Source of the DNA: an uncultured beta proteobacterium
Lineage (GTDB): Bacteria; Pseudomonadota; Gammaproteobacteria; Burkholderiales; Casimicrobiaceae
DNA length: 58,979 bases
NCBI GenBank assembly: GCA_903912485.1
Contig: CAIWHR010000076.1
Span: 1 to 58,979 of the forward strand
Reading direction: 5' to 3'
Position 1 is the stretch's first letter; each line of letters starts with the position of its first letter. Of the stretch, positions 9,127 through 47,100 are shown in pieces. Both the position numbers and the translations under genes were made by a program. The notes beneath the pieces are model-generated. The model was given only the letters and a program-made list of their open reading frames with translations. It was not told the DNA's origin and searched no databases.

Positions 9127-9147
9127 AGCTGCGTCCATCCACGGGAT

Positions 9148-10170: not shown

Positions 10171-10251
10171 TCGGGCACCGGTTGATCCGGAGCACGGCTT
10201 CGGCTGGAGCAAGCGAGGCACGCAAGCCCCTCGAGATCGGGATAGGGGCGG

Positions 10252-28452: not shown

Positions 28453-28485
28453 GGCCACCAGTTCACCCCCTTCGCGATTCACCCG

Positions 28486-30040: not shown

Positions 30041-31009
30041 GTCCATCAGAGCCGGGGGCCATGGGCTCGTGTTTGCATCCTTCGCCACATCGATCGGTTC
30101 GCTAACCCCCGGCGCATAGGTCAACCGCACCAGACACTCCTCCGCCCCATCGCTGACAGCCCGCAATGCCATCTCCCTCGCCAATCTCGCCCCGACCCGA
30201 TCGATGTGCGTCGGGTCCTTCCCGTACAGCGCTCCACCCCCAATGGGAATCCGCGGCCCGTAGTAATCCATCACCAGCTTGCGCCCGGTCTGGCCGTTGT
30301 CGCCATCGCTGCCGCCGTTGAGCGGCGGCCCGTTGGGGTTGAGCATCAGTTCGACCTCCTCCCAAGGCGCACACCAGCGCCGATCCGCCAGCCGAATCCG
30401 CCGATACGCATCCTCCAGCGTCCCCGCGATGGCCGTGCACAGGTCGAGGAACGACGTTTCCGGTCGCTGCTGCAGCGTGACCAGAACGTGCTCCAGCAGC
30501 CAGCGGTTGCCCTCCTCGCGCACCCGCACGATCAGCTTCCCGTCCGGCCCCTGTCCCTTGAGCCGACCGGACCGACACGACACGAACAGTGCATCGCGGA
30601 ACTCCCGCGCCAGCCAGTGCTCGATGGGCAGCCAGTCGACCTTGGCGTCGTAGCCCGCCCAGCCGATGCAGATGGCCTGATCGTTGACCTTGGCGGTCCA
30701 CTGCGTGGGGTCGCCGATCACCCGGCAGACGGTGTCGGTCACCCGGTACTGGCGGGCGTCGATGTGATTGCCAGCGGTGTAGCCGATGCCAATGCCGGTG
30801 GCGACGACGATGTCGGCGAAGTCCACCGGGATCGGCCGCCGGGTGCACACGCCGCCGGTCAGGAATACCTGATCGGACCAGACCGACATCTCGACCTGGC
30901 CGTAGCCGTCGGCGTCGACCTTCAGCACCTCGCCGATGATGGCGTCGGCGGCGGCGTCGCAGAACTTGTCGGGATGTCCGGGCAGCACGAATTCGGAGAC
31001 GCGGATCAT
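29912..31009 (-). CDS. divergent MetK-fold (S-adenosylmethionine synthetase-like) protein, 3-prime end probably replaced by IS debris
   Basis: ATG 31009 inside the 767-aa ORF-track entry. Collinear with E. coli MetK motifs: SEFVLPGHPDKFCDAAADAII, VEMSVWSDQVFLTGG, NDQAICIGWAG, GPDGKLIV, LNPNGPPLNGGSDGDNGQTGRKLVMDYYG, GGGALYGKDPTHIDRVGARLARE, YAPGVSEPIDV. Similarity ends near 30086. The last ~58 codons lie opposite the IS21 fragment and look non-native. Confidence 0.75.
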   Translation of the reverse strand: MIRVSEFVLPGHPDKFCDAAADAIIGEVLKVDADGYGQVEMSVWSDQVFLTGGVCTRRPIPVDFADIVVATGIGIGYTAGNHIDARQYRVTDTVCRVIGDPTQWTAKVNDQAICIGWAGYDAKVDWLPIEHWLAREFRDALFVSCRSGRLKGQGPDGKLIVRVREEGNRWLLEHVLVTLQQRPETSFLDLCTAIAGTLEDAYRRIRLADRRWCAPWEEVELMLNPNGPPLNGGSDGDNGQTGRKLVMDYYGPRIPIGGGALYGKDPTHIDRVGARLAREMALRAVSDGAEECLVRLTYAPGVSEPIDVAKDANTSPWPPALMDGRLTTMSTASNPALDPTVSTLAMARQQQPAQTQQRFRQVGKR

Positions 31010-31125
31010 GCGGGCACCTTGTCGAGTTGGGTGTAGGGGATGCCGGCGCGCTTCAGTTGCGCCGGGTTGCCGTCGCGGGTGACGAGCGCGGTGAGGCGCG
31101 TGCCGGCAAGAGCGAGGCGCACCGC

Positions 31126-32391
31126 CTAGCGCTCGACCGCCTCGATGTAGCCGTCGGTCAGCACGATCGCCGCCGCCGGCCGGGTGCGGGCGACGTGTTC
31201 CAGCACGCAGCCCATCGATGTGCCGCCGGTGGTCTGTGCCTTCAACTGGCCGCGCTCGATCACCGCCGGCGCGACCACGTCGGAGAACGCCCAGAACGGC
31301 CGGCGAATCCACTTCGAGACACGGGCGAGCAGCGCGATCACCAGCGGCATCTCGGCGTTCATCGAGCCGGACACGTCGAGATAGACGTGGGCGCTGCCCT
31401 CCCGCTTGGGCGAGAAACCCTCCCACAGCGCCTCGGGCAGGAACGGCGACCACTGCGCGCGCAGGAACGCCCGCCGATCGCGCGGGGAAAGCACCGGGAT
31501 GCGGTAGGCGTGCGGCTGGTCGCGCTGCGCCCGCGAGCGCGGGTCCGGCAGCAGGTGCTCGCGCAGCACCGCCAGCGTGCGTCGCTGCCAGCGCTCCAGC
31601 GGCTCGTTGCGGGACGACACGATGGCCTCGTACGCATTGGCACCGACGCCGCGGCGCTTCGGCGAGCGCCAGATGCCGCTGCCGTTCATCTCGCGCAGCA
31701 CTTGGTCGAGTGCCTCCGCCAGCGCGTCCGGCAGGCGGGCGGACGGGTCGTCGTGATTGCCGAGCATCCGATTGAAGTCGGCATCGCCTGCTCGCAACGT
31801 GAACGGCCCCGTGTCGCGGCATGCGACGCCGGGACCGGCCGCCGGCTTCACGGCCCCGAGTTCCTCGGCCAGCGCCTCGATGTCGTCGGCGAGCAGCGTT
31901 CCCGCGTACAGCCCCCGCCAGGCGCACACCCATGCCGGCCACTTGGCGCACGGGCCGAATCCCTCCAGATAGTGCCGCGACTCGCGCTCGTCCATCGGCC
32001 GCAGCAGCTTGGCCAACCCGGGCGCGTCGGCGTAGTAGCGGCTCATCATCGCCGAGTACGCGCTGCCGTGCTCGCGGTGGATGATGGCGTTGATCACGGC
32101 GTCGAGCGCCAGGTGGCGGGCGCGGGTGAAGGGCTTGCGCTCCTCGGTGTGGCGCAGCAGGACGTGCAGGAACTCGTGGCAGAGCAGCGCCTTGACCTCG
32201 GCGTCGTCGCGGCAATGGGCGGCGACGAAATCGAGGTTGACCAGAAGCCGCGGGCGCTCCTCGCAGGTCACCGCCAGCGTGGGCACGTCGGCGGTGAATT
32301 CGACGCCGAGGATGCGCAGCACGGCGCGGATGGCGAACGGGTTCTCGTCGATCAGCTCGGCGAGGATGGTGCGGAAGCGGATGGCGTTCAT
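31126..32391 (-). CDS. HExxH metallopeptidase-like + vWA (MIDAS) protein, second copy of this architecture
   Basis: ATG 32391 (MNAIRFRTILAEL) overlaps the stop of the 151-aa gene (ATGA). HExxH in LLCHEFLHVLLRH. vWA/MIDAS motifs VYLDVSGSMN, TGGTSMG, IVLTDGYIE. Confidence 0.85.
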   Translation of the reverse strand: MNAIRFRTILAELIDENPFAIRAVLRILGVEFTADVPTLAVTCEERPRLLVNLDFVAAHCRDDAEVKALLCHEFLHVLLRHTEERKPFTRARHLALDAVINAIIHREHGSAYSAMMSRYYADAPGLAKLLRPMDERESRHYLEGFGPCAKWPAWVCAWRGLYAGTLLADDIEALAEELGAVKPAAGPGVACRDTGPFTLRAGDADFNRMLGNHDDPSARLPDALAEALDQVLREMNGSGIWRSPKRRGVGANAYEAIVSSRNEPLERWQRRTLAVLREHLLPDPRSRAQRDQPHAYRIPVLSPRDRRAFLRAQWSPFLPEALWEGFSPKREGSAHVYLDVSGSMNAEMPLVIALLARVSKWIRRPFWAFSDVVAPAVIERGQLKAQTTGGTSMGCVLEHVARTRPAAAIVLTDGYIEAVER

Positions 32392-32843
32392 GCGTAGAAC
32401 CCCGTCGGATCGAAGAGTTCGAGCCGCCGCAGCAGCGCCGCCTGCGTCCACAGCACCGGCCGGGCCGGGTCGTAGAGTTGCGCGGTGCACAGTCCCAGCA
32501 TCAGCGCGTGCCAGAGCACGTCGCGCGCGGCGCCGCTGACGAGGTCGACCACGCCGCTGTGCAGGCGGTGCGGGCGGGCGACGAGGCGCTGGCCGGGGAT
32601 GTCGAACTCGCCGATCAGATCCTCGGGGGAGCCGAAGCCCTGATCGTTGAGTACCTGGGTGACCAGCTCGACCGGATCGCCCGCCGGAAAGTCGATCCCG
32701 AGGCGGACGATGCGCGGGCAGCGGACAAGGCGCTCGTCGTTGCCCAGCAGCGTCGAGTGGATCACCTCGCGGCGGGTGCGGCTCATCGGGCCGCCGGTGT
32801 TGGCGTAGCGGTCAATGCCGCGGGCGAGGTCGGGCAGCATCAT
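32388..32843 (-). CDS. 151-aa protein of unknown function, translationally coupled on both sides
   Basis: This is the last 151 codons of the 715-aa ORF-track entry. ATGATG 32838-32843 overlaps the AAA+ TGA, and its own TGA overlaps the next ATG. No motif recognised. Confidence 0.6.
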   Translation of the reverse strand: MMLPDLARGIDRYANTGGPMSRTRREVIHSTLLGNDERLVRCPRIVRLGIDFPAGDPVELVTQVLNDQGFGSPEDLIGEFDIPGQRLVARPHRLHSGVVDLVSGAARDVLWHALMLGLCTAQLYDPARPVLWTQAALLRRLELFDPTGFYA

Positions 32844-34234
32844 GCCAGCCGCCGCGCTCGCAGCACCTCGATGCAAGCCTCGATGTCGCGCTCCAGTTCG
32901 GCCGGCTTGGCCGGCTGCAGCCTCGACACCATGCACCACGAGAAGAACTGCTGCGCCCGCTCGGCGCGCGTGCCCTGCAACCCGGCGAGCACCTTGGCGA
33001 TGCGCGCGACTTCGGGATGGCTGGTGTTCGTCTCGTTGAAGCGCTCGCTCCAGGTGACCTCGCCGTCGACCGACAGGATCGGTGCCGCCACCTTGGCGAG
33101 GTCGTTGATCCCTTCCGCGCCGATCGGCAGGCGGCCCAGCGCCGCCGCCGGGTAGACGGCGAAGGCGAAGGCCCCGGCGCGTTCCTTCGACTCGGCCGCC
33201 AGGCACTGCGCGATCGCCTGCGAGCCGGCGTCCGCGGTCTTGGCATTGTCGAGCAGCAGCGCCAGCTTGCGGTCGAGCCGCGTCTCGGTCAGGAACGCAT
33301 GAACCCATGCGTCGGAGGCATTCGCGGCGCTGTCCCACGCGGCACGGTGCGCGGCGGCGATCGCCTCGGCCGCCGGCTGCTCGCCCCAGCAGGCGTGCGG
33401 CAGGCTGCAGGTGAGCACGCTGCGGAAGAGCCGCTCCCTGGTCTTGCCGGTGACGATGGTGGCGGCGAGAAGGCTGCGCGCGATCAGGCGCGCCCGCCGC
33501 GGCGAGATGCGGATGCCGCCGGCGTTGAGCGCTGTCGTGACCGCGACGGCGTAGGCGACGACCAACGGCGGCAACGCCTGCAGGCTCTGCTCGAAGATCG
33601 CGCGCCAGCCATCGACCTCCTTGCGCAGCGCGCCGCCGTCGCTGGCGATGCGGCCTTCTCCGCTGGGATCGGCCACACCCCGGCGCTCGTCCTCGCTCAG
33701 GTCCGCCCAATCGGCCGCGGTGACGAACAGCGCAAAGCGGTCCGCCAGCGCAGGATCGAGCGGCTCCGACCCGGCGTAGTCCTGCACGCTCGACTGATCC
33801 GAAGAGCACGGATTCATCGCCGCCCAGCGCCAGCGCAGGCAGGGCAGGGCAATGCCCTGCACCCGGCGCTCGTGCACCAGCGAGAACAGGCGATTCTGGT
33901 GCTCGGGCTTGCAGCGGCTGATTTCGTCGATCAGCACCGACTCCGCGCCCCAGACCGTGGCCGGCGTCTCGAGGAAGCGCACGCCGGAGCCGTCGGGGTC
34001 GGGATACGGGAAGCCGATCAGGTCGTCGAACGAAATCAGGCTGGCGTTGTAGTGCCGGTGCTCGAGGCCCAGCGTTTCGGACAGCGTGTTGAGCAGGTAG
34101 GTCTTGCCGGTGCCCGAAGGACCGATCAGCAGCAGCGGATCTTCGGTGACGAGCGCAGCCAGAATGACGGGTTCGACGGCGTCGAAGCCAAAGACGCCGA
34201 GCCGCGCCAGGCGCGACGGTGCGGATGCTTTCAC
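32840..34234 (-). CDS. MoxR-type AAA+ ATPase with ~250-aa helical C-terminal extension
   Basis: GTG 34234 with AGAGGAG 7 nt upstream (VKASAPSRLARLG). Walker A LLLIGPSGTGKTYLL, Walker B VLIDEISRCKPEHQNRLFSLVHER, then AAMNP. Confidence 0.85.
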   Translation of the reverse strand: MKASAPSRLARLGVFGFDAVEPVILAALVTEDPLLLIGPSGTGKTYLLNTLSETLGLEHRHYNASLISFDDLIGFPYPDPDGSGVRFLETPATVWGAESVLIDEISRCKPEHQNRLFSLVHERRVQGIALPCLRWRWAAMNPCSSDQSSVQDYAGSEPLDPALADRFALFVTAADWADLSEDERRGVADPSGEGRIASDGGALRKEVDGWRAIFEQSLQALPPLVVAYAVAVTTALNAGGIRISPRRARLIARSLLAATIVTGKTRERLFRSVLTCSLPHACWGEQPAAEAIAAAHRAAWDSAANASDAWVHAFLTETRLDRKLALLLDNAKTADAGSQAIAQCLAAESKERAGAFAFAVYPAAALGRLPIGAEGINDLAKVAAPILSVDGEVTWSERFNETNTSHPEVARIAKVLAGLQGTRAERAQQFFSWCMVSRLQPAKPAELERDIEACIEVLRARRLA

Positions 34235-34531
34235 TATGCTTCTCCTCTTTAGCGGCGATTGCGCGAAGGCGCGGGGGCCGCAAGCCGGAAACAAATCCCC
34301 CGGCCCGTGACGTGGGCCAGCCGTGGTGCAGATTCAGTATGCTCGGGTGGTGGCTCACAGAGTGAGCCTGATTTCGAATCTTTGCCTGACTCCCCGAGTC
34401 TTCAGGAAATACGGCCCGATGTCGCCGGAAGGCCCGGTCCCGCAAACTTCGCGGATGTCGTGCCTCCCCCGTCGGTCGCTCATTGCGCCGGGAACGCCCG
34501 GAGCGCGTGCTCAACGGCCCCAAGAGGCGGC

Positions 34532-35032
34532 TCATTCAGCCAATCGGTGACCAAACCCATCCTCGACGCCATGCATCGCCGCACGGAATCCGCGCACGTC
34601 GACCAGCGCGTTGTGACGCGGGCCGTGCGTTGCGGCCCAGGCATCGAGCTGGCGCTCGAAGGACTCTTCGATCGCGGAATCCTTCCAGGTCAAGCGGCGA
34701 CCGTGGACTCCGTGCTGGTTAGGCAGGTCGTCGAACAGCCCCGACAGCAGCCGCCAGTCGGCGCGAAGGTCGTAGATTACCGTCACCGGCTCGCCCAGGC
34801 TTGCCAGCCAGCCAGGAAGCACCTCTCGCAGCTGGGCGCGGGACATCGATACGTCCCGGCTTCGGAGAAGGTGCGGCAGCACGTTGTTGACCACAAAGTC
34901 GTTGCAATCTTCGAGGGTCCAGTTGTCGGTGACCTCGGCGTAGAACTCGCGGCCGTCGTCGGCCACCAGTGCGATGGAGATCAGGGCTGGCCGGTCCATG
35001 CTCGAGAATTCGGTGTCGAGATAGCAACGCAT
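34532..35032 (-). CDS. DEDDh 3-prime-5-prime exonuclease (DnaQ/RNase T-like)
   Basis: MRCYLDTEFSS (Exo I), central acidic motif, HNALVDVRG (H-x4-D, Exo III). 166 aa. Confidence 0.75.
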   Translation of the reverse strand: MRCYLDTEFSSMDRPALISIALVADDGREFYAEVTDNWTLEDCNDFVVNNVLPHLLRSRDVSMSRAQLREVLPGWLASLGEPVTVIYDLRADWRLLSGLFDDLPNQHGVHGRRLTWKDSAIEESFERQLDAWAATHGPRHNALVDVRGFRAAMHGVEDGFGHRLAE

Positions 35033-35902: not shown

Positions 35903-36292
35903 ATGGAATGTCCATTCTGCAACTTTCCGGCGGGTCGCGTGATTGCCAAGAGTCCCCGAGCCATGGTCGTTCGCGACGCTTATCCCGTTGCGCCGGGCCA
36001 TACGCTGATAATTCCCGCGCGCCACGTGGACTCCTTCTTTGCACTGGGTCCCGACGAACGGATGGAGCTTCTCGGACTGCTCGATCGAGCCAGGGAACAG
36101 CTGGACGCGGAATTTCGTCCCGACGCCTACAACATCGGCATCAATGACGGCACTGCCGCCGGCCAGACCATCCCTCACGTCCATATCCACCTCATCCCAC
36201 GCTACCGGGGTGACTGCGCCGACCCGCGCGGCGGAATCCGCTGGATCGTGCCGGCCAAGGCCGACTACTGGACCCCGCGCGAGACTCCGTAG
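35903..36292 (+). CDS. HIT-family (histidine triad) nucleotide hydrolase/transferase
   Basis: MECPFCNF.., PVAPGHTLIIPARH, and the histidine triad IPHVHIHLIPR. 129 aa. Ends 9 nt before the next gene. Confidence 0.85.
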   Translation: MECPFCNFPAGRVIAKSPRAMVVRDAYPVAPGHTLIIPARHVDSFFALGPDERMELLGLLDRAREQLDAEFRPDAYNIGINDGTAAGQTIPHVHIHLIPRYRGDCADPRGGIRWIVPAKADYWTPRETP

Positions 36293-36301
36293 GACATTCG
36301 G

Positions 36302-39300
36302 GTGCGCGAAAAGCTGATCCGCGACCGGGTCCCGGCGCTTGCCCAAGCGCTGGGGCAGACCCTCGTCACCAGGACCGCGCTGGACCAGGAATTGGATCGT
36401 TTGCGCGGGCTCAAGCTGGTCGAGGAGACGCACGAGGTCATCGATGCGCTGGCCAACGGGCCGCGAGGGAGCCTGGTCGACGAACTGGCCGACCTGCAGA
36501 CAGTGGTCGAAGAGGTGGCGCGGCGCAGAGGCATCGCGCTCGAAGAGATCGAGCAGCGGATAGAACAGAAGAGATCGGAACGCGGGGGATTCGAGTCCGG
36601 ACTCGTGCTGCGCGAGCACGGCACGCCGTCGCCTCGGTTGCACGTTGGCGGCGCCGCTACGCTGATCGACGCGTTGCAGCGCGAGCTCCGGGCGTGCACG
36701 TCGGCACGCATCGCCATTGCCTTCATCATGCGCAGCGGTGTCGAGCTGCTGGAAGGGGCAATCCGGGCCGCACTCCTGCGCGGTGCCGAGATCCGGTTGC
36801 TGACGACGGACTACCTCGGCGTCACCGAGCCGGAGGCGCTGGATCGCCTTTGCGAGTGGCCTGGGCGCTTCGACGCGCGGATCTACAGCCATGAGCGTCG
36901 CAGTTTCCACCCCAAGGCCTACCTTTTCGAGCGCGCCGACGGGTCTGGCCGAGCGTTCATTGGTTCGGCGAATCTGTCTCGGATGGGCCTCCGCGAAGGC
37001 GTGGAGTGGACGTGGACGGTGCTCGACGTGGACTTCGGTCACCCGATGCACGAGATCCGAACCCGCTTTGATGAACTCTTCGGGTGCGAGGACGTCCAGC
37101 CGCTGAGCCCCGATTGGATCGGAGCCTATCGCGCCCGTCGGCAGGTTCGCCCGTTCGCGGAGACATGGTCACCTCCCGATGCCGTTCCCGCCATCCAACC
37201 ACGGGAAGTGCAGGTGCTAGCGTTGCAGGAACTTGACCGACTGAGGTCGGACGGGCAGCACAAGGCCCTCGTGGTTGCGGCCACCGGCCTGGGCAAGACC
37301 TTCCTGGCGGCCTTCGACGCACGAGATGCGTCACGCGTACTCTTCATCGCGCATCGGGAGGAGTTGCTTCGCCAGGCAGCCGCGGCTTTTGGGCAGGTCT
37401 ACCCGGAACGCACTCAAGGGTTCGTCATCGAAGGCCGCGCCGAGTACGACCGCGACCTGGTCTTCGCATCGGTGCAGACCCTGTCTCGACCTGAGCAGCT
37501 TGCGCGCGGAGAACTGCCGCGTTTCGACTACGTTGTCATCGACGAATTCCATCACGCCGCGGCGGATAGCTACCTTCGCGTATTGCGGGCACTCGTGCCG
37601 CGATTCCTCCTCGGGCTGACGGCCACACCATTCCGCGGCGACAATCGTGACCTGCTTGAACTTTGCGACGGCAATCTGGCGTACCAGGTCGGCCTCTTCG
37701 AGGCCATCGGTTTCGGCTGGCTGGTGCCATTCCATTACTTCGGGGTGGCCGATACCGTCGCCTATACCGACGATCTGCTCACGGCGCGACGCACCTATGA
37801 TGCGGGCAAGCTCACGCTGCGCTTCAATACCGCCGAGCGCGCCGATCTGGTGATCGATCGCTTCCGCCGGCACAACTCCCGCGCGGCGCTCGGCTTTTGC
37901 GTCTCGATCGAGAACGCCGATTTCATGGCGGCGCGATTCGCATCTGCGGGCATCCCGGCTGCTGCCGTGCATTCGGCGAGCACTTCCATGGACCGCGTCG
38001 AGGCCGTTCGCAAGCTGGAGCAGGGACACCTCAGAGTGCTGTTCACCGTGGACATGTTCAACGAGGGCGTGGACATTCCTGCGATCGACCTCGTGCTCTT
38101 CGTTCGGCCGACCGAATCGATGACGATCTTCCTTCAGCAACTGGGCCGAGGTCTGCGACTGAGCGCCCGGAAGAGATTTCTCACCGTCCTCGACTTCATC
38201 GGCAATTACCGCAACGCGCACTTCAAGCTTCCGTTCCTCGCCGGCCAGGACCTCAGTCAGGACCTCGATCCGGGCAAGGCGCTGAGGCTGCTTGCGCGCT
38301 GGACCCGAGAGGGAATCGCGCCCCCGGGCATTCCGGAAGGTGTGGCGATCGAACTGGAGCCGGTCGCGCTGAACTCGTTGCGAGCGTCGCTACAGTCAGC
38401 GACGCCGCTGCGTCAGCTTGTCGTCTCGGATCTCACCGAAATGGCCGACCGGCTGAAACGTCCACCGACCCTGTACGAGTGGCAACAATTCGGCCGCTAC
38501 TCCCTTCGAACGGCGATGGCCGCACTGGGCGTCGACCGCTGGCATCGGATCCTGGAGACGGCGGGCATGCTCGGGCCGCAAGCGCGGGCGCTGGAGCGGG
38601 CGGCCGGCGACTTCCTGCGAGAAGTGGAAACGACACGTATGACCAAGTCATTCAAGATGGTCGTGCTGCTCGCCATGTGCGAAGGCGGCGTCTTCGCGCG
38701 GTCGATCGCTATGGACGCACTGATCCGGTCGTTCCGTACGTATTTCGGCGAAGATCGTCATCGCAGCGATGTCCTCGGGACCGTCGTGGAGAACGTCGAA
38801 GCGGTCGGTGCGGCGATATGGCGGAGTTACCTGTTGGCCAACCCGATCAATGCGTGGACCGGCGGGAATGCGGGCGCGGATTCCCCGTTCTTCGCCTGGA
38901 ACGGAACCGCGGGGGAATTCCGTTACATCGGCCCCAGCCCCGGCTACAGCCAGCCGGATCTGATCCAATTTTCCATTGCGGTTCGGGACCGGGCATTGGC
39001 TCAGTTGCACGCCTACTGGCGGCGACCGGGCCCGGGACGATTTGTCTATCCGGTGATTCCGACGGGAAGCATGGCTGGCGACGGAGCCGCGATCACCGGG
39101 CGCCCCGTCTGCATCATGTTCGGCAATCACCGGGAGAGTTTGCCCGACGGGTGGCATCTTGTCCTGATCAACGGCAAGCACCTCTACGGAAAATTCGCGA
39201 CGGTGGCACTGAACGTGCTCAAGGATGTCGCCACGGACGATCGCACGGTGCCAAACGCCCTTACACGCGAACTCGAAGCGCTGTTCGGCGGTCGCCTGCC

Positions 39301-39367
39301 CCAACGGCCACGCGTTCGACTCATCAAGAAACCGGGCTCGCCTGTCTGGGAGATACTCGCGGCGTGA
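36302..39367 (+). CDS. multidomain MazG-like NTP pyrophosphohydrolase - PLD nuclease - SF2 (DExH) helicase - unknown C-terminal domain
   Basis: GTG start. Residues 1-105: KLIRDRVPAL..EETHEVIDAL..ELADLQTVVEEV..RSERGGFESGLVL (MazG/PRA-PH-like). One HKD motif: HPKAYLFERADGSGRAFIGSANLS. Helicase motifs AATGLGKT, VIDEFHH, GLTATPFR, QQLGRGLR. The last ~330 aa are unassigned. Confidence 0.85.
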   Translation: MREKLIRDRVPALAQALGQTLVTRTALDQELDRLRGLKLVEETHEVIDALANGPRGSLVDELADLQTVVEEVARRRGIALEEIEQRIEQKRSERGGFESGLVLREHGTPSPRLHVGGAATLIDALQRELRACTSARIAIAFIMRSGVELLEGAIRAALLRGAEIRLLTTDYLGVTEPEALDRLCEWPGRFDARIYSHERRSFHPKAYLFERADGSGRAFIGSANLSRMGLREGVEWTWTVLDVDFGHPMHEIRTRFDELFGCEDVQPLSPDWIGAYRARRQVRPFAETWSPPDAVPAIQPREVQVLALQELDRLRSDGQHKALVVAATGLGKTFLAAFDARDASRVLFIAHREELLRQAAAAFGQVYPERTQGFVIEGRAEYDRDLVFASVQTLSRPEQLARGELPRFDYVVIDEFHHAAADSYLRVLRALVPRFLLGLTATPFRGDNRDLLELCDGNLAYQVGLFEAIGFGWLVPFHYFGVADTVAYTDDLLTARRTYDAGKLTLRFNTAERADLVIDRFRRHNSRAALGFCVSIENADFMAARFASAGIPAAAVHSASTSMDRVEAVRKLEQGHLRVLFTVDMFNEGVDIPAIDLVLFVRPTESMTIFLQQLGRGLRLSARKRFLTVLDFIGNYRNAHFKLPFLAGQDLSQDLDPGKALRLLARWTREGIAPPGIPEGVAIELEPVALNSLRASLQSATPLRQLVVSDLTEMADRLKRPPTLYEWQQFGRYSLRTAMAALGVDRWHRILETAGMLGPQARALERAAGDFLREVETTRMTKSFKMVVLLAMCEGGVFARSIAMDALIRSFRTYFGEDRHRSDVLGTVVENVEAVGAAIWRSYLLANPINAWTGGNAGADSPFFAWNGTAGEFRYIGPSPGYSQPDLIQFSIAVRDRALAQLHAYWRRPGPGRFVYPVIPTGSMAGDGAAITGRPVCIMFGNHRESLPDGWHLVLINGKHLYGKFATVALNVLKDVATDDRTVPNALTRELEALFGGRLPQRPRVRLIKKPGSPVWEILAA

Positions 39368-39551: not shown

Positions 39552-39938
39552 TCATCGAGCCGCAATCGGGGACATTTCATTGACCTTCACAGCCACCGCG
39601 CTGCACGCCTTGATGAGATCGGTAACGATGCGCTCGTCCACGTTCAGATCGCCCTCGTACTCACCTGGATTGCGGATTTCGTGGCACTTCGCCAACACGC
39701 GCCACACCTCCGGTCCCAGACCGAGCGTGTGCGGCAGCAGTTGGAACACGAGGTAGCGATTACCGCATCGGTAGCCATGCCAGCGCAGCGCGGCGAGGCA
39801 CAACGCATGCGCCGCGTTATAGGCAAGATCAAAACGGCTTTCCACCGCAAGCCCGGGCGCCCCGGCGTCCCGGAGTCGGATGGTGCCGGACCGCAGGAGG
39901 CCGGCGAACTCCTTTGCGTCCGGAGGCTCGACCTTCAG
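39552..39938 (-). CDS. HEPN-domain protein (toxin-like partner of MNT)
   Basis: FDLAYNAAHALCLAALRWHGY and CHEIRNPGEYEG resemble classical HEPN helices. No in-frame ATG or GTG near the expected start. CTG 39938 overlapping the MNT stop (CTGA) is a guess. Confidence 0.5.
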   Translation of the reverse strand: MKVEPPDAKEFAGLLRSGTIRLRDAGAPGLAVESRFDLAYNAAHALCLAALRWHGYRCGNRYLVFQLLPHTLGLGPEVWRVLAKCHEIRNPGEYEGDLNVDERIVTDLIKACSAVAVKVNEMSPIAAR

Positions 39939-40363
39939 CGGCTTGCTAGGCGCGCACCGGTGGCCTCGACCGCCGCGAAAACGTCGCCGTAGCTCAACGC
40001 ATCGCTGACCACCATCAGATCGATGTCGCTGGTGGCGACGTCCTGCCGCTTGGCGACGGAGCCGAACACGAATGCTGCCCGAATCTGCGCGGCAAGCGGT
40101 TGCAGCGCTTGGCGCAACGGCTCGGCGAGCCCGACGGTCTTCTGCAGGATTCCGCACAGTTCCGTGAATAACGGCGAGTCCCGGTTCGCTTGGTAATGCC
40201 TTTGATTTCCCAACGGCCGCACGGTCGCCAACCCGCTGCGCGCCAAACGCGCCAATTCACGTTGCACCGCGCCCGAGCCGCCTCCAGCCAGGCTGATCAA
40301 CTCGGTCGCGTAAAAGCTGCGTGCGGGTTGCCCGAATAGCAACCCGATCCAGGCGTGCCGCAA
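39935..40363 (-). CDS. winged-helix + minimal nucleotidyltransferase (MNT) protein
   Basis: LLFGQPARSFYATELISLAGGGSGAVQRELARLARSGL (wHTH) and FVFGSVAKRQDVATSDIDLMVV (GS..D.D NTase motif). Start unresolved; TTG 40363 is a guess. The ORF-track N-terminus (to 40627) runs through tRNA-like DNA and is not believed. Confidence 0.5.
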   Translation of the reverse strand: MRHAWIGLLFGQPARSFYATELISLAGGGSGAVQRELARLARSGLATVRPLGNQRHYQANRDSPLFTELCGILQKTVGLAEPLRQALQPLAAQIRAAFVFGSVAKRQDVATSDIDLMVVSDALSYGDVFAAVEATGARLASR

Positions 40364-40543
40364 AGCAAGTGCCCCATCCGGCCAGGCACCGCCCAGCCAG
40401 CGAAGCGGTTTGGCGAGAAGTTCGAGGGTCAGATCAGCATGTTGGATGAACTTGTGGGCGAGATTGCCCTGGGGCGTCGGTGCTCCGGTCAGAGTCCGGC
40501 TTGAATCCCCCTCCACCTTCGTATAGAATTCGTCGTTCTTTGC

Positions 40544-40562
40544 AGGCGCGTAGCTCAGCTGG
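40544..40562 (+). other. tRNA 5-prime-end-like fragment (acceptor + D-arm only)
   Basis: AGGCGCGTAGCTCAGCTGG matches a tRNA acceptor stem plus D-arm. I could not fold an anticodon arm or T-arm downstream, so this is not an intact tRNA. Confidence 0.3.
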
Positions 40563-40738
40563 CACCACCTTGACATTGTTGGATCGTCAGACGGTAGGTA
40601 GCACTTTTCATAGGGAGATTGCCGCATTCAACCCGTTAAGAACCGGATAGACCGCGTAATTATAAATAATAATTCATAAAAAACGAGACAGAAGCTAGGG
40701 TAAGATCGCGAACACAACCCGACCTCCGGCGATCAAGC

Positions 40739-41379: not shown

Positions 41380-44115
41380 ATGGCGAATGAACCCCGCTAC
41401 CTCGCCCAGCGGGACTACCTGCCAAGACTCCAATCGGCCATCGCGGAGGTGGCCGCCGGCAGTGCTGCAACCTTCGCGGGAATTCACGCGCGGGTAACGA
41501 CCCTTCTGGCGATCCCTCCCTCGCTGACGCAGCTTCCGCTGGTCCTGCAATCGCTCGCCAGCGTTCTTCCCGTCGCATCGAGGTTCCATCCCCACCTCGC
41601 CAACGAGCTTGACCAAATCGACCAGTGGTGCGGCTTCATCAACTCAATTCCAGCGGAGCATACATTCTGGAAGATGGAATTGTTCCGGGGCAAGAAGGCA
41701 CCGGCCGGAGTGCCGGGCGCGCACGCGACCGGCGCTCCGATGAAGCGCCGCCACAAGGGCATTGTCCTGACTCATCCACTGTGGGTTGCGTTGGGCTACA
41801 CCTCGGAGACGCCGCTCAACACGCCGGCTGGTGACACGCGCCGGTGGGCGTTCTGCAATGTCCAAGCCAATATCCTCGCCGCATTTGTCCAGCGGGCGAG
41901 CCAAGGTGACGAGCCCCACTATCGGATCGGGGATGCGTGCTGGTTGCTTCGGCAGTTCGGGGGCGACTATGCAGGATCGAACGAGGACGCTACCCAAAGG
42001 AACGCGAGGCTCATGCGTCTGCGGTGCCTCGAACAATACGCGGACGCCGGCAGCGCCGACGACCTCTTCGCGGTGGCAAAGCAACAGCATGCCGAACCCT
42101 ATCCAATCGGTCCCGGTGCCGGGGCCTTTGCCGAACTGCTCTCCGACACTTTTGCGCTCAAACACCCGCCGGTCATTCGCCACGTCGAGGCTGGAAAACG
42201 AGCACAGGGCAAGCGGCACCGTGGCCGAACTCGACTCAATGAGGAGATCTATCCGGGCTTTCGCAGCTACGAGCTGCTGAGCGACGGCTTCGGTCGCGAC
42301 GAAGCCGACGGCGGTTTTTCGATCACGCTCAGCAGCAACGAACCTGAGTTCGCCACTGCCGAGACCCTAGATGCCGCCGGCATCGATCCGGCCGAGTATG
42401 CGAGGTCGGATACAACGTGGGTAGGCGTCGAGGGTTTCGCCGAGTTGCGGGGTACTCCAGACGCTCCCGTGGGCAAGACCTTGCCACCGCTGGCGTCAGT
42501 CTATGGCATGGCTCGTGCCCGCGCCCGAGCGCAACGGCTGTCCGCCCAGCGTTTCACTACCCGGCGCGGACGTGTCACAGCACCCGAATTCGCCAGAATC
42601 CTCAGCGTGCTCGATGCAGCCTACGTAGCCGTGTTGCAACGGCGGCAAGCGAACAGCACAGGTTCCGGCTTGACGCGGTCGGCAACTTCGGATCGATTGC
42701 TGCAGGAAACGTTGGTGCTTGCCGGCATCGTCATCGCAACCGGCACCAACCCCGCGGGGGCCATCGCAGTTCATCACTGGCCGGGCAACCCCGGCTCACT
42801 GCCGTCGAACTGGCAGCTTGCCTACAGCCTCGCCGAAGGGGGCATCTGGCGGCGTCCCTGTCTTGTTCCCGTACGCGGTCCGCAAGTACCGCTGCCCGGC
42901 CAAGCGGCTTCCAACATGCCGACGGTCCCCCTCTCCGATCTTTGGGGTGTGGGCAGCAAGCTCTGTTCGCTGGGACCGCAGGGCCAATGGTTCCAGCACT
43001 CCCTTGCCCAGCTGACCGCTGCTTTCAAGCGGAACATCTCGAAGCTGCTGGAGCACGCCGGCGTCACCAAGACATGGCGCTCCCTGGACGCGTTCGCCGA
43101 CCTCCTTCCCGAATGGTTTTCCGGGATGGAGGAAGGAGACCAGCTCAGGGTCGCCTTCCTGTTCGCGCGGAACGATCCGATGGCCGCCGTCCACCTGTAC
43201 TACACGGCGTTCGACCCGTTCATGCTCGATGCCTGGCATGTCAAGTCGGTAACAGATTTACAGAAGCGCCTTGCTGCCAATGGCTTCGTCGTGCGGGCGG
43301 ATGAATTGGCGGATGGATTGTTTTCGAGTTCCCCGGCCGCGAGTATCGGACGCCGCCTCACTGGCGACGACCGCATCCTCGACCCCAAGTTCCTTCGCAA
43401 GACAACGACGACCCTGCGAGAACAGGCTCGGCGACCTGGCACCGACAGGATGGAGGATGTGGTAAGGCAGCACAATTACTTGACCGCCTACGTCGGGGCC
43501 GTTCTGGCCATCTGCACCGGGTTCAGGTCGGTCCGGACGCCGATTCCCGACCTCACCGCGATCGACCCGGAAACGGGATGCATGCCCCTGCAGGAGAAGG
43601 ATTCTGACGGCAACGCGCACGGGCGCATCGTGTGCCTTCCTGACCGTCTGCGTGAGCAGATCGACACGTACCTCACACACTTGCGTCAGCTTTGGAGTTG
43701 GTTGCCAACCAAGACGAGCAAGACACTGGAAGTCGAGGCGACCAAGCAGCGCGACCGAAGCCGGTACGGGTCGGATACTTTCCATCTGGATCTTGGCTGC
43801 ACCCTCTTCTTCCTCAAGATCGTCGAGGGAGAGGTGGTAGCGCAAGAATTCACGGGGGCTCTACTGAAGGCTTCGGTCGAAGAGGTCTGCCCGAAGTCCT
43901 GGCCGTTCGACAACTCGGGGCGGCATTTCCTCCGTTCTTGGCTCAGCCACAAAGAGTGTCCAGCAACGATCATCAATGCAGCGATGGGGCACTCGAACAC
44001 CGGCGAGTTTCCGTGGGCACCGGAATCGGCAATGGACCCCTATCGGTACCGCGAAGTTCTGCTGCAGTACCTTGATCAGCTACTGAATGAACTGCACTTT
44101 GAGGTCGTGCGGTGA
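41380..44115 (+). CDS. giant tyrosine recombinase-like protein (911 aa; catalytic domain C-terminal)
   Basis: C-terminal ~250 aa carry AICTGFRSVRTPIPDL (Arg I), GRHFLRSWL (HxxR), AAMGHSN (His/Trp position) and a downstream Tyr (DPYRYREV). The N-terminal ~650 aa are unassigned. Confidence 0.75.
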   Translation: MANEPRYLAQRDYLPRLQSAIAEVAAGSAATFAGIHARVTTLLAIPPSLTQLPLVLQSLASVLPVASRFHPHLANELDQIDQWCGFINSIPAEHTFWKMELFRGKKAPAGVPGAHATGAPMKRRHKGIVLTHPLWVALGYTSETPLNTPAGDTRRWAFCNVQANILAAFVQRASQGDEPHYRIGDACWLLRQFGGDYAGSNEDATQRNARLMRLRCLEQYADAGSADDLFAVAKQQHAEPYPIGPGAGAFAELLSDTFALKHPPVIRHVEAGKRAQGKRHRGRTRLNEEIYPGFRSYELLSDGFGRDEADGGFSITLSSNEPEFATAETLDAAGIDPAEYARSDTTWVGVEGFAELRGTPDAPVGKTLPPLASVYGMARARARAQRLSAQRFTTRRGRVTAPEFARILSVLDAAYVAVLQRRQANSTGSGLTRSATSDRLLQETLVLAGIVIATGTNPAGAIAVHHWPGNPGSLPSNWQLAYSLAEGGIWRRPCLVPVRGPQVPLPGQAASNMPTVPLSDLWGVGSKLCSLGPQGQWFQHSLAQLTAAFKRNISKLLEHAGVTKTWRSLDAFADLLPEWFSGMEEGDQLRVAFLFARNDPMAAVHLYYTAFDPFMLDAWHVKSVTDLQKRLAANGFVVRADELADGLFSSSPAASIGRRLTGDDRILDPKFLRKTTTTLREQARRPGTDRMEDVVRQHNYLTAYVGAVLAICTGFRSVRTPIPDLTAIDPETGCMPLQEKDSDGNAHGRIVCLPDRLREQIDTYLTHLRQLWSWLPTKTSKTLEVEATKQRDRSRYGSDTFHLDLGCTLFFLKIVEGEVVAQEFTGALLKASVEEVCPKSWPFDNSGRHFLRSWLSHKECPATIINAAMGHSNTGEFPWAPESAMDPYRYREVLLQYLDQLLNELHFEVVR

Positions 44116-47100
44116 TCACGACCACCACCCCCGTGTTGCCAACCGACATCTGGGCCGGATGGGGTCATCTGGATGGCCTCTCGGACATGTTTGGCGCGAT
44201 GACCCAATACGACGAGGCATGGCTCGTGCCGCGTCTACTTTCCGACAAGGCCAGGGCGATCCTGGCCATGGTTGCAAAGACTGCTCCGGAGTTACTTCCG
44301 GTCCGCTTGAGGGGGGGCATCGTAGCCACCGAGACGTTCAGGGCATGGTTGCGGGAAATTGGAGGTCTCATCGAAAGCGCTGAAGAGCGGTTCTGGTACC
44401 AGCGCCGATTTCTCGAGGTGATCGATGCTGGTAACCGTACGGGCCGTTTCCAGATTCCGATTCGCCAGATTCCGCTGCCGCCGATTCCAGACCCGGCTTC
44501 TCCGTTCCAGCAAGTTCGGTTCGAGGCAATGGCCGAATTGCGGCTGCTGCAGTCTGGGTTCGTTGCCTCGCTGGGCAGCGCGACCAAACTGACCGACGAA
44601 GCCCGTTGGGGCCGGGTCATGCTGAGCGCCGTACTGTTCGGTGGCCTCCCACGGGCGCGCTGGCTGATGGCGTTACCCGAGGCGCTGGCGAACAAAGCTG
44701 ACGCCGAACTGCGCTGGCTAGACCTCGTCATCGAGGTCGTAGACCGCCCAGATCGACGCACCAGACGGGTTAGCGATGAGGTCACAGGTTTGGGTGATAC
44801 CACTACCCGCGCCGCTCCGGGTCCCGATCCAGTGCCGCCACTAGTTGCGGACGACTCGGCGGCGACGACGAGCACCCTGGCGGCTACCACGTCGACGAAC
44901 GAATCGGATGCCACTTCAGCCAAAGCGCCGATCCGGGTCTTGCGACGCTGGTTTCCCGATCCGTTGACTCGACTTCTCCTGCGCGAGTTCCAGTGCTCCC
45001 CGGCCAATGCGCCATCGGTAACAGGTGGCACGGATTCCGTTGCCGTCCGGCGGCTCATGAAGGCGTACCTTGTTGCCTGCGATCTCGACGATCATCTTCC
45101 GAGGAGCTTCCGGTCGCTGTCGGACGCAGTCAAGACGCGTCTACACCTTCACCTCCCGCCTTACCTCGTCGAGTATGCGTTCGAGAACTTCGAGAGCACC
45201 TCGCTGGCACCGCATGCGTGGATGAGGCTTGTGAACCCGCCTGAGAGGGTCACCGTCGAGTTGCCGCCGCGCTCGCGTGAGCAACATGCGATGGCCCAGC
45301 TCGGTCCGCCGGCCGAGTCCCGGGATGAGGCGGGTGCCATGGACGGGGCAACGCCTGGCGCCGGCCATGGGGAAGCAGGAGAGGATACGGACGATCCGCT
45401 GCCGCCACAGGAGGCAGAGTTGTGGCCGGCGCAGTTGCTTGAACTTCGCCGGATCGTACGGGGCGACTTCGAGACAGCCTCCGACCGGATAAAGTCATGG
45501 CTTGCCGCGCAAGGCCCCGACCTCCTCCCCAGCGTCAAATGGATCGCCCGCTGGGTCTCCGAGTACCTACTGAAACCCGGTGCCCACAGACACGCGAAAA
45601 GACCCCGCACCGTCTATCAGTTCCTGCGCACCGCCGGAGTGGAGCTCACCGCACATCTCGGTCCTGCCGACCCCACGCGATTAGGCGACGAGGACGAATA
45701 TGCGGACCTCTACGAGGAGGTATTGGAAGAAGCTGGCAACATCAGCACTCGCCGCGTCATGGCCAACGCGCTTCGCTCGTTCCACGCGTTCCTGATGATC
45801 GCAACTCCCGAAATATTGTCGAAGGAGAAGACCGACGCACCATCGGTGGTAAAGGCCGACGATACATCGGTTAAGAAGAGCGGCGCCGGTTCAAAGGAAA
45901 AGATGGACATCCCGTCGGTTGAGGAAACCGGGGTCTTTGTCGTTAGTGGCCGCGGTGGCAGCCGAGTTGATGCCAACGTGATCGGCATCGCTACGTACAA
46001 ACTCGCTATCAATGAACTTCGGAGCACCAACCAGTCCCGCTTGGACCAGGCTGTGCTCGAGGCGCTCTGTCGGGTGGCGGGACTTGGCTTCTTCGCGTCA
46101 TTGCGCCGGTCAGAAGCAATCGGGTTGACTCTCGATGACGTTCTCATTGGTGGGGACGAGGTCTTTATTGACGTTCGTCCCAATCCGTTCCGCTTGCTCA
46201 AGACCAACAATGCACGGCGCCGTCTTCCGCTGCACATCCTCATGCCCGCGGATGAACTGAAGGATTTCCGGCTTTGGGTCGAGAGCCGGCGTGAACAGGA
46301 AGGAGATGGTTCGCGTCCGATCTTTCCCATGTTCACCCGACCGAAGGGCGTACGCGACACCGATCCCCGCTTGGCGTTCATCGTCGCTGCGCTACAAGCA
46401 GCAACTGGCGACCCCTTCTTTCGTTTCCATCACCTACGCCACTCCTTCTCGACTTGGCAGGTCGTTCAATTCTGGGTCGCTGAACAACGGGCACTGCATG
46501 CAGCCATCCCGGATTGGTTCCTCTACACTGAAGACGACTTGGAACGTTGGACGAAGGCCAAGCCCCTGCGCGACCGCATTCTCGGATCAACGCACACGAA
46601 TCGCCGGGCGCTCTTGCAGGTCAGCCACTTCATGGGGCATGGCAGCGCCGACATCACCTTGGGTTCCTACGTCCACCTGCTCGACTTCCTGCTTGGGCGA
46701 GCCGTGCGGCGTGTCGCGCCGCGAATCGAACTTTCCGCGCTCGCGGTCTTGACCGGCCAGACAGAAGCGGCACTCAAACGCCTACTGGCGCAGCACGCTT
46801 CAACATCGACGGCGGCAACCGACGATCCTGAAGCCAATTGGCTCGATGCGGTGTTCATCGGTCCCCGCGGGCCCGGGCGGCCCCATGGGAAGAGGCAACC
46901 CTTGCCCAAGGTGAGTTTCGAGCAACCCCCAAGACTGCACCTGCCAAGCGACCCGTACGCGCGAATGATGCAACAGATGGACGCGGCCAATGCGTTGCGC
47001 GCCTCCCCGACAGGCAATGCGGCGGTCGTCGCCGGCCGCTACGGCGTCCGCGCCGTCACTGCGGCGACCGCAGCCAAGACGCTGAAAAAGCTGCCGCTCG

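Follow-up and report, generated by a model that had tools for sequence, protein, structure and literature searches.

A SauUSI-type nuclease without an SRA reader, joined to MazG and HIT enzymes, in an uncultured betaproteobacterium

In the genome of an uncultured betaproteobacterium of the Casimicrobiaceae (assembly GCA_903912485.1), a HIT-family nucleotide hydrolase gene lies directly upstream of a gene encoding a protein of 1021 amino acids (aa) in which a MazG-like domain, a PLD-family nuclease and a helicase-like SF2 ATPase follow one another in a single chain. The two genes, here called the cassette, are found on contig CAIWHR010000076.1, whose 58,979 nucleotides were analysed in full and are referred to as the window. 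The locus raises the question of what kind of nuclease this is, and why two enzymes of nucleotide hydrolysis should be joined to it, one in trans and one in cis. An earlier note, made from the sequence alone, had described the two genes as lying 9 nucleotides apart and had seen in them a HIT protein, a MazG/PRA-PH domain, a PLD domain with one HKD motif, a complete SF2 helicase and a beta-rich segment at the C-terminus; both open reading frames (ORFs) are present on the forward strand (Table 1), and this domain reading is borne out by Pfam, by sequence motifs and by an AlphaFold2 model.

The PLD-ATPase core of the large protein is not a new kind of protein: it is clearly homologous to SauUSI, a Type IV restriction endonuclease, and the protein as a whole is very probably a SauUSI-family defence nuclease. 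What sets this locus apart from SauUSI is the loss of the SRA reader in favor of a rare beta-rich module, the fusion of MazG in cis and the presence of a dedicated HIT partner. The arrangement is not categorically new, and a link between such nucleases and a pyrophosphohydrolase has already been published.

The nuclease, its kinship with SauUSI and its C-terminal end

The assignment of the large protein to the SauUSI family draws on sequence, profile and structural comparisons. A phmmer search against PDB sequences retrieves 7CLG, whose title gives it as a crystal structure of SauUSI, an ATP-dependent restriction endonuclease, with an E-value of 7.8e-87 over aa 106-726, the alignment reaching residue 642 of the SauUSI chain and thus entering its helical coupler. 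The full-length AlphaFold2 model, built on an alignment of 79 sequences, has a mean predicted local distance difference test score (pLDDT) of 87 and a predicted template-modelling score of 0.79, and its top Foldseek match is again 7CLG (E 5.8e-41, about 800 aligned columns). The next-best matches, to RadD, Type I HsdR and XPB, are at least 60 orders of magnitude weaker and involve the ATPase only. The restriction and defence framing of the earlier note is likewise upheld by PADLOC, in which the mREase_IV models PDLC03659 and PDLC03658 match at 2.6e-96 and 3.1e-82. The stronger of these matches covers profile positions 40-586 of 945, leaving the C-terminal third, which corresponds to the reader, unmatched.

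SauUSI is a homodimer assembled through its PLD domains, and its chain comprises, in order, the nuclease (residues 1-191), a linker, the SF2 ATPase, a helical coupler (618-805) and finally a target-recognition domain with the SRA fold (806-953); the enzyme recognises 5-methylcytosine (5mC) and 5-hydroxymethylcytosine, translocates along DNA at the expense of ATP and shreds it (PMC7913695). In the cassette protein, the PLD motifs are HPKAYLFE (aa 203-210) and GSAN (aa 221-224), and those of the ATPase are GKT (aa 331-333), DEFH (aa 414-417) and QQLGRGLR (aa 612-619). When conservation was scored in an alignment of 79 diverse relatives, the nuclease proved invariant in GSxN and in the H-x-K of its single HKD motif, and the ATPase motifs GKT, DEFH, TAT and QxxGRxxR were likewise each retained in 79/79 sequences. 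The predicted protein is thus shown by homology to possess the SauUSI chassis of nuclease, SF2 translocase and coupler, with all catalytic motifs intact and one HKD motif per chain.

Other known nuclease-helicase systems do not account for this core. An identity as the R subunit of a Type I or Type III restriction enzyme was rejected, the similarity being confined to the ATPase core (1e-18 to 1e-23) and the nuclease being of PLD type; no Mod, HsdM or HsdS gene adjoins the cassette among its neighbours in the window. The PLD-helicase anti-phage protein (NF042964, PADLOC PLD_Helicase) matches at E 0.016-0.017 in the HKD region alone, and DrmC of the DISARM system at E 0.0005-0.1 within the HKD motif region, and both were discarded. 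None of the neighbouring genes inspected in the window was recognised as a DNA methyltransferase, and the conserved cassette consists of the HIT and nuclease genes only.

The start of the nuclease gene at a GTG codon is supported by its relatives, which share the N-terminal sequence M-x-EKLIRD. The short spacer that separates this codon from the HIT stop codon implies that the two genes would be transcribed together, and their translation is probably coupled as well; in relatives, the corresponding gap amounts to a few tens of bases or is replaced by an overlap. A scan of the locus for promoters and terminators yielded nothing exceeding shuffled expectation.

Table 1. Features of the HIT-nuclease cassette in the window, with domain limits in the nuclease given in amino acids.
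Feature	Coordinates	Strand	Remarks
HIT-family nucleotide hydrolase gene	35903..36292	+	ATG start, 129 aa; Pfam HIT 3.1e-24
Intergenic spacer, HIT stop codon to nuclease GTG	36293..36301	+	9 nucleotides, GACATTCGG
Nuclease gene (MazG, single-HKD PLD, SF2 ATPase, helical coupler, basic beta-rich end)	36302..39367	+	GTG start, 1021 aa
MazG-like all-alpha NTP pyrophosphohydrolase domain (aa 1-105)	36302..36616	+	EETHE (aa 41-45) and ELAD (aa 61-64) as metal-binding motifs
PLD-family nuclease domain, single HKD (aa ~113-285)	36638..37156	+	PLDc_2 at aa 137-257; aligns to the 7CLG nuclease domain
SF2 DExH helicase-like ATPase/translocase (aa ~294-650)	37181..38251	+	ResIII 5.7e-30 (aa 298-445), Helicase_C 3.9e-14 (aa 517-620)
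Helical coupler (aa ~651-859)	38252..38878	+	contains the conserved ETTRMTKSFKMVVLLAM helix; model helical over aa 657-852
Basic beta-rich terminal module (aa 860-1021) and stop codon	38879..39367	+	confident model; position preceding the SRA reader in relatives

The C-terminal region of about 330 aa, which had been left unassigned beyond its beta-rich end, divides into two parts of different standing. A hidden Markov model (HMM) of aa 755-859, a helical stretch that contains the ETTRMTKSFKMVVLLAM helix, matches every one of the 80 genomic loci closest to the query in similarity (L001-L080), which constitute the locus survey, and the region is therefore identified as the coupler of the family. 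An HMM of aa 860-1021, by contrast, matches 14/80 of these loci, and a profile search among 1.84 billion representative proteins recovers 158 clusters. The beta-rich end is thus a rare module. The segment DGWHLVLINGKHLYGKF (aa 949-965), which had been singled out as possibly reading DNA, corresponds to two predicted strands in the AlphaFold2 model (pLDDT 87-88), and the terminal module as a whole is modelled with equal confidence (pLDDT 88).

Modelling and profile comparison of the C-terminus thus deliver a confident beta-rich structure, but no known fold and no relation to the SRA domain. Foldseek returns no significant PDB match for the fold of the module (best E 0.55), and a search with aa 755-1021 does not retrieve the SRA domain of SauUSI; nor does the sequence find a match in Pfam or the PDB, even as a profile. 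The possibility that the C-terminus is a divergent SRA/DUF3427 domain was rejected on several grounds, since Pfam DUF3427 is not detected at E<=10 and neither PDB profile searches nor Foldseek provide a match. An SRA HMM built from relatives has no match anywhere in the window, BLASTP similarity to a canonical family member with a full DUF3427 stops at aa 731, and in hhalign neither half of the canonical DUF3427 shows any relation to the module (probability 0.1%). An assignment to B3, PUA, EVE or another known reader was discarded for want of a fold match, and the one marginal hit, to a DUF262 protein in BFVD (E 3e-3), is insufficient to build on. In more distant members of its clusters, the module lies directly upstream of the C-terminal (SRA) half of DUF3427, which indicates that the cassette protein is a chain that stops before the reader. 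The module has an isoelectric point of 9.8, equal to the median of its family; this basic character is compatible with a putative nucleic-acid-binding or DNA-reading function, and the module is the best candidate for DNA contact in a protein devoid of a reader.

Strong forms of the module co-occur with HIT in 13/13 assessable loci. Weaker versions, however, are present in relatives without HIT and the pattern partly tracks clades, and a role of the module in docking HIT has therefore not been counted as evidence. A module common to the coupler (TKSFKMVVLLAM) and to the N-terminus of HIT-linked HNH proteins (TATYKFALIIALA) was also considered and found not to be significant (E 0.2-0.6, hhalign 0.2%).

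The small enzymes that accompany the nuclease

The protein encoded by the first gene is a well-supported member of the HIT family (Pfam 85.9 bits against a cut-off of 21.5), with CPFC at its N-terminus, the triad HVHIHLIPR at aa 92-100 (nucleotides 36176-36202) and a subfamily-specific tail, YRGDCADPRGGIRWIVP. Its best solved relatives are a generic HIT protein, Ap4A (diadenosine tetraphosphate) phosphorylase and FHIT (1e-16 to 3e-15). It is 40-59% identical to the HIT proteins that adjoin SauUSI-like genes or are fused to their products, from the Firmicutes to the Planctomycetes, and together they form one subfamily marked by the signature CPFC...HxHxHxIPRYxGDxxDPRGGVRxVIP; this subfamily is large, comprising 6,657 clusters at E<=1e-15. 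The fused HIT of one locus (L029:5572-9129) looks degenerate, with HFRIHVVPQ in place of the triad and 28% identity to the cassette HIT; the other linked HIT proteins keep the triad.

The association of this HIT protein with the nuclease is conserved. The HIT gene lies directly upstream of the nuclease gene in 8/9 independent close-family contexts, namely the window, L001 (Azohydromonas australica), L002, L081, L082, L083, L085 and L087 (cut by a contig end), and the flanks of these pairs are unrelated to one another, including IS66, toxin-antitoxin/WYL, Mrr and QueD/radical-SAM genes. The sole exception is L086, where a methyltransferase-like gene is found instead. Conservation of the HIT-helicase pair, proposed earlier as a check, is hence observed, and the adjacency is far beyond chance. 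Of the two outcomes that the earlier note had set down as speaking against it, one was found, as the core does match the named SauUSI family, and the other was not, HIT adjacency being nonetheless conserved. In 12 more distant loci, HIT is encoded in frame and N-terminal to the PLD domain. ORFs in the surveyed loci were taken from stop to stop and a fusion was defined as a shared frame with no intervening stop, with the HIT-PLD-helicase architecture confirmed by Pfam on 4 examples. In the Firmicutes, the HIT gene is located just upstream or downstream of the nuclease gene.

HIT proteins of this kind are not restricted to SauUSI-like partners. All three of the close HIT relatives sampled for context (68-69% identity) adjoin other nucleases in defence islands. 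In L088:5001-6439 and L089:5001-6562, the HIT gene overlaps a conserved HNH gene of about 350 aa, the two HNH proteins being 51% identical and their N-terminal 230 aa lacking a Pfam match, and in L090:3847-5411 the HIT gene adjoins an HNH_2 gene; the combination of HIT and HNH appears to be a separate two-gene cassette of defence islands. This pairing indicates that the HIT protein is a modular partner of several nuclease types, and it argues against a role bound to the chemistry of PLD or to the ATPase.

The MazG domain of the large protein is recovered by Pfam in the context of the whole chain (PRA-PH 28.5 bits, cut-off 21.3; MazG 25.8 bits, cut-off 22; aa 28-94) and in the isolated N-terminal segment (PRA-PH 8e-08, MazG 4e-07), and its modelled helices span aa 10-16, 28-52, 55-75 and 80-94. 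The domain is present in 69/79 relatives, in 65 of which the five acidic ligands (E41, E42, E45, E61 and D64) are all kept, and this retention argues for an active MazG enzyme. Members of this subfamily (NKLVRDxIP...EExxE...EELAD...RGGF) are also encoded by stand-alone genes that adjoin SauUSI-like genes in Bacillus, Paenibacillus, Geobacillus and Clostridium. An attempt to infer the substrate of the domain through DCTPP1 was abandoned, as the matches of the first profile to that enzyme came from two divergent DCTPP1-like sequences in the alignment, and without them the best PDB match falls to E 0.003.

The cassette is one instance of a wider pattern. At least one small accessory enzyme, fused or adjacent, occurs in about 75 of the 80 surveyed SauUSI-like loci: HIT in 24, MazG in 19, Nudix in 8 and a methyltransferase-like protein of about 200 aa, of the small-molecule type that uses S-adenosylmethionine (SAM), in 39, with none of the four in about 5 loci, two of which are cut off by contig ends. 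HIT and the methyltransferase are never found together (0/24 against 39/56; Fisher 1e-9, without correction for phylogeny). On a rough, distance-based neighbour-joining tree of the core, accessory types interleave among close relatives, with a minimum of 12 state changes for HIT, 10 for MazG and 7 for the methyltransferase, and the mutual exclusivity of HIT and methyltransferase is thus not just a matter of two deep clades. The methyltransferase-like module is of class I (Methyltransf_25) and its closest solved relative is the uncharacterised 3E23; the loci that carry it include L011, L017, L018, L022, L030-L034 and L036, and about 23 of the 39 also have a C-terminal Peptidase_S24-like domain.

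Canonical members of the family also have such neighbours. On a Lactobacillus plantarum plasmid (L091), a canonical SauUSI-like gene is flanked by Nudix and MazG-like genes, followed by a GIY-YIG/Schlafen-type helicase. In L083, a second, canonical SauUSI-like gene with DUF3427 (8870-10700, reverse strand) shares an operon with an HNH_2 gene and a true homologue of DCTPP1/RS21-C6 (8e-27); this operon is located about 2 kilobases from the HIT and reader-less PLD-helicase cassette of the same locus, with an Mrr-type nuclease between them. Six Firmicutes loci (L009, L014, L020, L028, L040 and L072) encode tandem paralogous PLD-helicases, a longer one (about 950-1060 aa) that has an SRA domain and a shorter one (about 810 aa) that has none, and genes for MazG, HIT or Nudix lie in between or alongside, an arrangement that suggests possible heterodimeric or two-enzyme systems.

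Some further arrangements were noted in these contexts. The locus L088 also contains, at 599-4730 on the reverse strand, an operon encoding a DCTPP1-like MazG together with a Schlafen-group-3 helicase and a protein of DUF4379/DUF559 type, which is divergent from the HIT-HNH pair and adjoins a SIR2-NACHT gene; the pair of MazG-like protein and GIY-YIG/SLFN helicase on the L. plantarum plasmid resembles this operon. In L085 (832-2581), from a Quisquiliibacterium metagenome-assembled genome, PTPS (QueD-like) and radical-SAM (QueE-like) genes stand directly upstream of the HIT and MazG-PLD-helicase genes, which may reflect a link to 7-deazaguanine metabolism or may be a coincidence.

Possible roles of the accessory enzymes

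The HIT and MazG components are probably active enzymes that are functionally integrated with the nuclease. The best explanation for the cassette as a whole is that a SauUSI-family nuclease without a reader is combined with accessories that hydrolyse non-canonical nucleotides, a proposal that we put forward tentatively and at somewhat less than even odds. By analogy with the biochemistry of SauUSI, the nuclease would form a homodimer in which two PLD domains build one active site, and ATP hydrolysis would power its translocation along foreign DNA, which would be cut or shredded. Enzymes of the MazG and HIT types are obligate dimers. Placed at the N-terminus of the PLD dimer, or translated together with it, they could assemble their own active sites beside the nuclease. 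MazG would convert nucleoside triphosphates to nucleoside monophosphates (NMP) and pyrophosphate (PPi), and a HIT protein resembling FHIT and Ap4A phosphorylase would cleave NMP-X to NMP and X. Their substrates could be the modified deoxynucleoside triphosphates (dNTPs) or activated precursors specific to a phage, or else modified nucleotides recycled from degraded foreign DNA. The outcome would be that the hypermodification of phage DNA is starved, that modified bases are kept off the host chromosome, sparing the host from self-restriction, or both. As a variant of this scheme, HIT might attack the nucleoside diphosphate (NDP)-sugar donors of DNA glycosylation.

Hydrolysis of non-canonical nucleotides is favored by the convergence on one nuclease family of several folds that cut at the alpha-phosphate (MazG, Nudix and HIT), together with the linked DCTPP1 homologues. 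That HIT and MazG act on non-canonical nucleotides of the same conflict is nevertheless the weakest step of the proposal, and one we would rate as rather less probable than its opposite. Several observations weigh against it. The best NCBIfam match of the HIT protein is 'ATP adenylyltransferase', at 67.9 bits against an equivalog cut-off of 290. The MazG subfamily is without a close solved relative (best PDB match E 0.003, to E. coli MazG), and the substrate of the domain is therefore not inferable by homology. HIT and MazG occur together in the window and in 7 loci and are not simply redundant, and the commonest accessory of the family, a small-molecule SAM methyltransferase, does not fit a model based on hydrolysis only. 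The counts of co-occurrence derive from the 80 nearest loci, with shared ancestry not fully corrected. Lastly, with the SRA reader absent, dependence on modification, which is the rationale for an action on modified nucleotides, is itself unproven for this protein.

The same absence lends itself to a different explanation, in which HIT and MazG set or sense a signalling nucleotide (Ap4A or another dinucleoside polyphosphate (NpnN), the alarmones (p)ppGpp or a phage-made molecule) and thereby license or restrain the nuclease, so that discrimination would take place in the nucleotide pool and not through marks on DNA. Since the SRA domain is missing here and in many relatives linked to HIT or MazG, some other means of discrimination is needed, and a fused or translationally coupled layout would suit allosteric control; the HIT protein resembles the FHIT/Ap4A phosphorylase branch, E. 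coli MazG hydrolyses (p)ppGpp, and a signal-degrading role has been proposed by the authors of PADLOC for the HIT protein ThsC. Yet both accessories keep their catalytic residues as turnover enzymes do, the cassette has no conserved gene for synthesis of a signal and the same accessories are found beside canonical SRA-bearing enzymes, which possess a DNA reader of their own, and we regard this explanation as unlikely, if the least so of the alternatives. The swapping of HIT and methyltransferase among close relatives, on the other hand, is what would be expected of analogous parts, and it could be taken to mean that the accessories protect the host, acting as a modification subunit on host DNA ends, on the nuclease (for instance by de-adenylylation) or on a cofactor, with the nuclease being blocked by modification instead of dependent on it. 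Nearly every locus has one such small partner, the HIT gene lies upstream of the nuclease gene and is presumably coupled to it in translation, and methyltransferases have been described near DUF3427 genes (Lutz et al.). This interpretation is improbable, however, as the methyltransferase is of the small-molecule type and lacks a DNA-recognition domain, HIT, MazG and Nudix proteins have no known DNA-marking activity, and SauUSI is demonstrably modification-dependent and reported without a companion methylase.

An action on DNA ends or adducts is about as improbable. In this scenario HIT would resemble aprataxin and act on 5'-adenylated DNA, on a covalent enzyme-DNA intermediate or on a ligase-AMP intermediate, either blocking re-ligation or recycling the enzyme. 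PLD nucleases do use a phosphohistidine intermediate, HIT is fused next to the nuclease domain in many relatives and aprataxin is a detectable, if distant, HIT relative (1e-4); but among solved HIT proteins the closest are hydrolases and phosphorylases of nucleotides and not aprataxin, near relatives of the cassette HIT are paired with HNH nucleases, which do not pass through a covalent intermediate, and the same accessory slot is filled by MazG and Nudix proteins, which cannot act on DNA ends. Even less probable is a housekeeping role or simple co-carriage, whereby the hydrolases would clear the products of massive ATP or dATP use or would sanitise the pool without any relation to the nuclease. 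Such a role has been proposed for the gene linked to SauUSI (Xu et al. 2011, PMC3141236), and in a HIT subfamily of this size not all members need be partners of nucleases. Against this, ATPase translocases yield adenosine diphosphate and inorganic phosphate, not PPi, the sampled close HIT relatives all adjoin nucleases in defence islands, and repeated fusion to the nuclease, tight coupling, conserved catalytic residues and the recruitment of at least four unrelated folds point to a specific function. Least probable of all is a DNA-repair helicase-nuclease of the RadD or XPB kind, accompanied by nucleotide-sanitising enzymes and unconnected with defence. The helicase core does match RadD and XPB and annotators call the small partners 'DNA repair' MutT homologues, but the SauUSI match exceeds that of RadD by the margin given above and covers the PLD domain and coupler as well, while the distribution of the cassette is patchy, with mobile-element and defence-island settings, varying flanks and absence from most genomes.

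The earlier note's suggestion of a coupling between nucleotide sensing or depletion and nuclease attack is a reasonable inference within this range of explanations. A bolder form of it is that this clade has abandoned the reading of DNA marks altogether, with HIT and MazG detecting or consuming non-canonical nucleotides of the phage (modified dNTPs, NpnN or NDP-sugars) and so licensing the nuclease; self and non-self would then be set in the nucleotide pool, and the swappable accessory slot would be a general second arm of SauUSI-type restriction. This we offer as a speculation with little more than an outside chance of being right.

The hydrolysis of non-canonical nucleotides, if true, would add a layer at the level of the nucleotide pool to modification-dependent restriction, by which accessories destroy modified dNTPs or guard the host from recycled ones, and could provide a source of enzymes with specificity for modified nucleotides. 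The main barrier that gene transfer meets in Staphylococcus aureus is SauUSI, whose family is widespread. The pyrophosphohydrolase linked to it has stood unexplained since 2011, and the present cassette makes the matter easier to test, with a fused pyrophosphatase, conserved catalytic residues, a HIT partner and no 5mC reader. Four unrelated small enzymes sharing one interchangeable slot, with HIT and methyltransferase exclusive of each other, suggest a routine coupling of SauUSI-type restriction with chemistry on small molecules or nucleotides. The rare C-terminal module, for its part, may be a new DNA-recognition domain.

Genomic setting and comparison with known systems

The surroundings of the cassette in the window contain further genes of conflict and mobility. 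Directly downstream, and convergent with the nuclease gene, are the PADLOC candidates PDC-M05B (39552-40157, 3.4e-59) and PDC-M05A (39935-40627, 1.1e-55), both on the reverse strand, the latter a Pol-beta-type nucleotidyltransferase; a terminator-like hairpin (39457-39434, reverse strand) lies between this pair and the nuclease gene. Two overlapping ORFs of 911 and 1211 aa (41380-44115 and 44112-47747, forward strand), the second with a weak tyrosine-recombinase (Phage_integrase) domain, are followed by a HipA toxin kinase (48041-49315, reverse strand), and this setting points to an integrative mobile element as the likely carrier of the cassette. The cassette has close relatives in 2 of 185,579 species representatives and in more than 100 clusters from metagenomes, mostly Burkholderiales-like, whereas plasmid and viral collections contain no close copy and yield only distant SauUSI-family relatives at no more than 45% identity.

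On the other side of the cassette, all on the reverse strand, are a 767-aa protein with three S-adenosylmethionine-synthetase domains in its C-terminal half (29912-32215; aa 404-712), an adjoining 484-aa AAA_5/MoxR-like ATPase (32840-34294) with a weak mad8 match as its only PADLOC hit, and a 166-aa ORF without a Pfam match (34532-35032) upstream of the HIT gene; these three could constitute another conflict system. Between about 25000 and 30000, the G+C content is 0.58-0.61, down from about 0.67, and the GC skew is negative, consistent with horizontal acquisition of this segment, and the ORFs 26370-27587, 27571-28482 and 28512-29474 have no Pfam match and a weak PADLOC match to LeoBC.

Several published systems bear on the cassette. 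SauUSI was reported to be linked to a conserved pyrophosphohydrolase/MutT-Nudix-like gene, with at least 60 homologues linked in the same manner, and the function of this gene was left unexplained (Xu et al. 2011, PMC3141236); MutT homologues have since been drawn beside SauUSI homologues (Bell et al. 2020, PMC7641849), and both Nudix and MazG-like genes linked to SauUSI-like nucleases are confirmed among the loci studied here. Separate specificity proteins have been described, as have methyltransferases near DUF3427 genes, with no mention of HIT or MazG (Lutz et al. 2019). The claim that added nucleotide-hydrolysing modules are unusual in such a protein accordingly needs to be divided: the pyrophosphohydrolase link has been in print since 2011, but in the openly accessible literature, subscription journals being outside the search, no report was found of a cis fusion of MazG to a SauUSI-type nuclease, of a HIT partner to SauUSI, to a PLD-helicase or to Type IV restriction, or of an SRA-less form of the SauUSI family.

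In its nuclease, the cassette is closest to SauUSI itself, with which it shares the single-HKD PLD domain, the long linker, the SF2 DExH translocase and the helical coupler in the same order, the HxK(x)4E motif, the lack of a DNA methyltransferase and the linkage to a nucleotide pyrophosphohydrolase. It differs from SauUSI in having no SRA/DUF3427 target-recognition domain and ending in an unrelated basic beta-module, and in carrying a MazG-type pyrophosphatase in cis at the N-terminus in addition to the HIT partner. With the SAUSA300_2432-type genes (Xu et al. 2011; Bell et al. 2020), it has in common a small NTP pyrophosphohydrolase linked to a SauUSI-family nuclease, but here the pyrophosphatase is of the MazG superfamily, is fused to the nuclease and is accompanied by HIT, an enzyme of which neither paper speaks.

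The accessory enzymes have known counterparts of their own. The HIT protein resembles the FHIT/Ap4A phosphorylase branch in its HxHxHxx triad followed by PR(Y/W)xGD, yet it belongs to a subfamily of its own with a conserved DPRGGVRxVIP tail and a nuclease as partner or fusion. Type II Thoeris likewise has a HIT-fold protein in a defence setting, and the PADLOC model of ThsC matches the cassette HIT at 1.6e-12; an identity with ThsC was nonetheless rejected, the match being one of generic HIT fold, and, unlike Thoeris, the cassette and its conserved neighbourhood have no ThsA or ThsB (TIR/SIR2) genes. DCTPP1 and E. coli NudG (Orf135) are house-cleaning pyrophosphatases that prefer 5-modified deoxycytidine triphosphate (dCTP), and they provide a precedent for the exclusion of 5-methyl-dCTP from DNA. 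The cassette MazG shares with DCTPP1/RS21-C6 the all-alpha MazG-superfamily fold and the EExxE...ExxD ligands, but is of another subfamily. In the dNTP-depleting defence systems of the PUA-Calcineurin-CE-HAD and rare PUA-MazG-HAD types, MazG has been predicted, though not validated, to be a nucleotide-targeting defence domain (bioRxiv 10.64898/2026.01.15.699771). Those systems are similar to the cassette in that nucleoside triphosphates are the predicted target of a MazG-like enzyme and that modified mononucleotides matter, but they rely on a PUA sensor and have neither nuclease nor translocase, whereas in the cassette MazG forms one chain with a restriction nuclease, and sensors of the PUA, EVE or SRA kind are absent.

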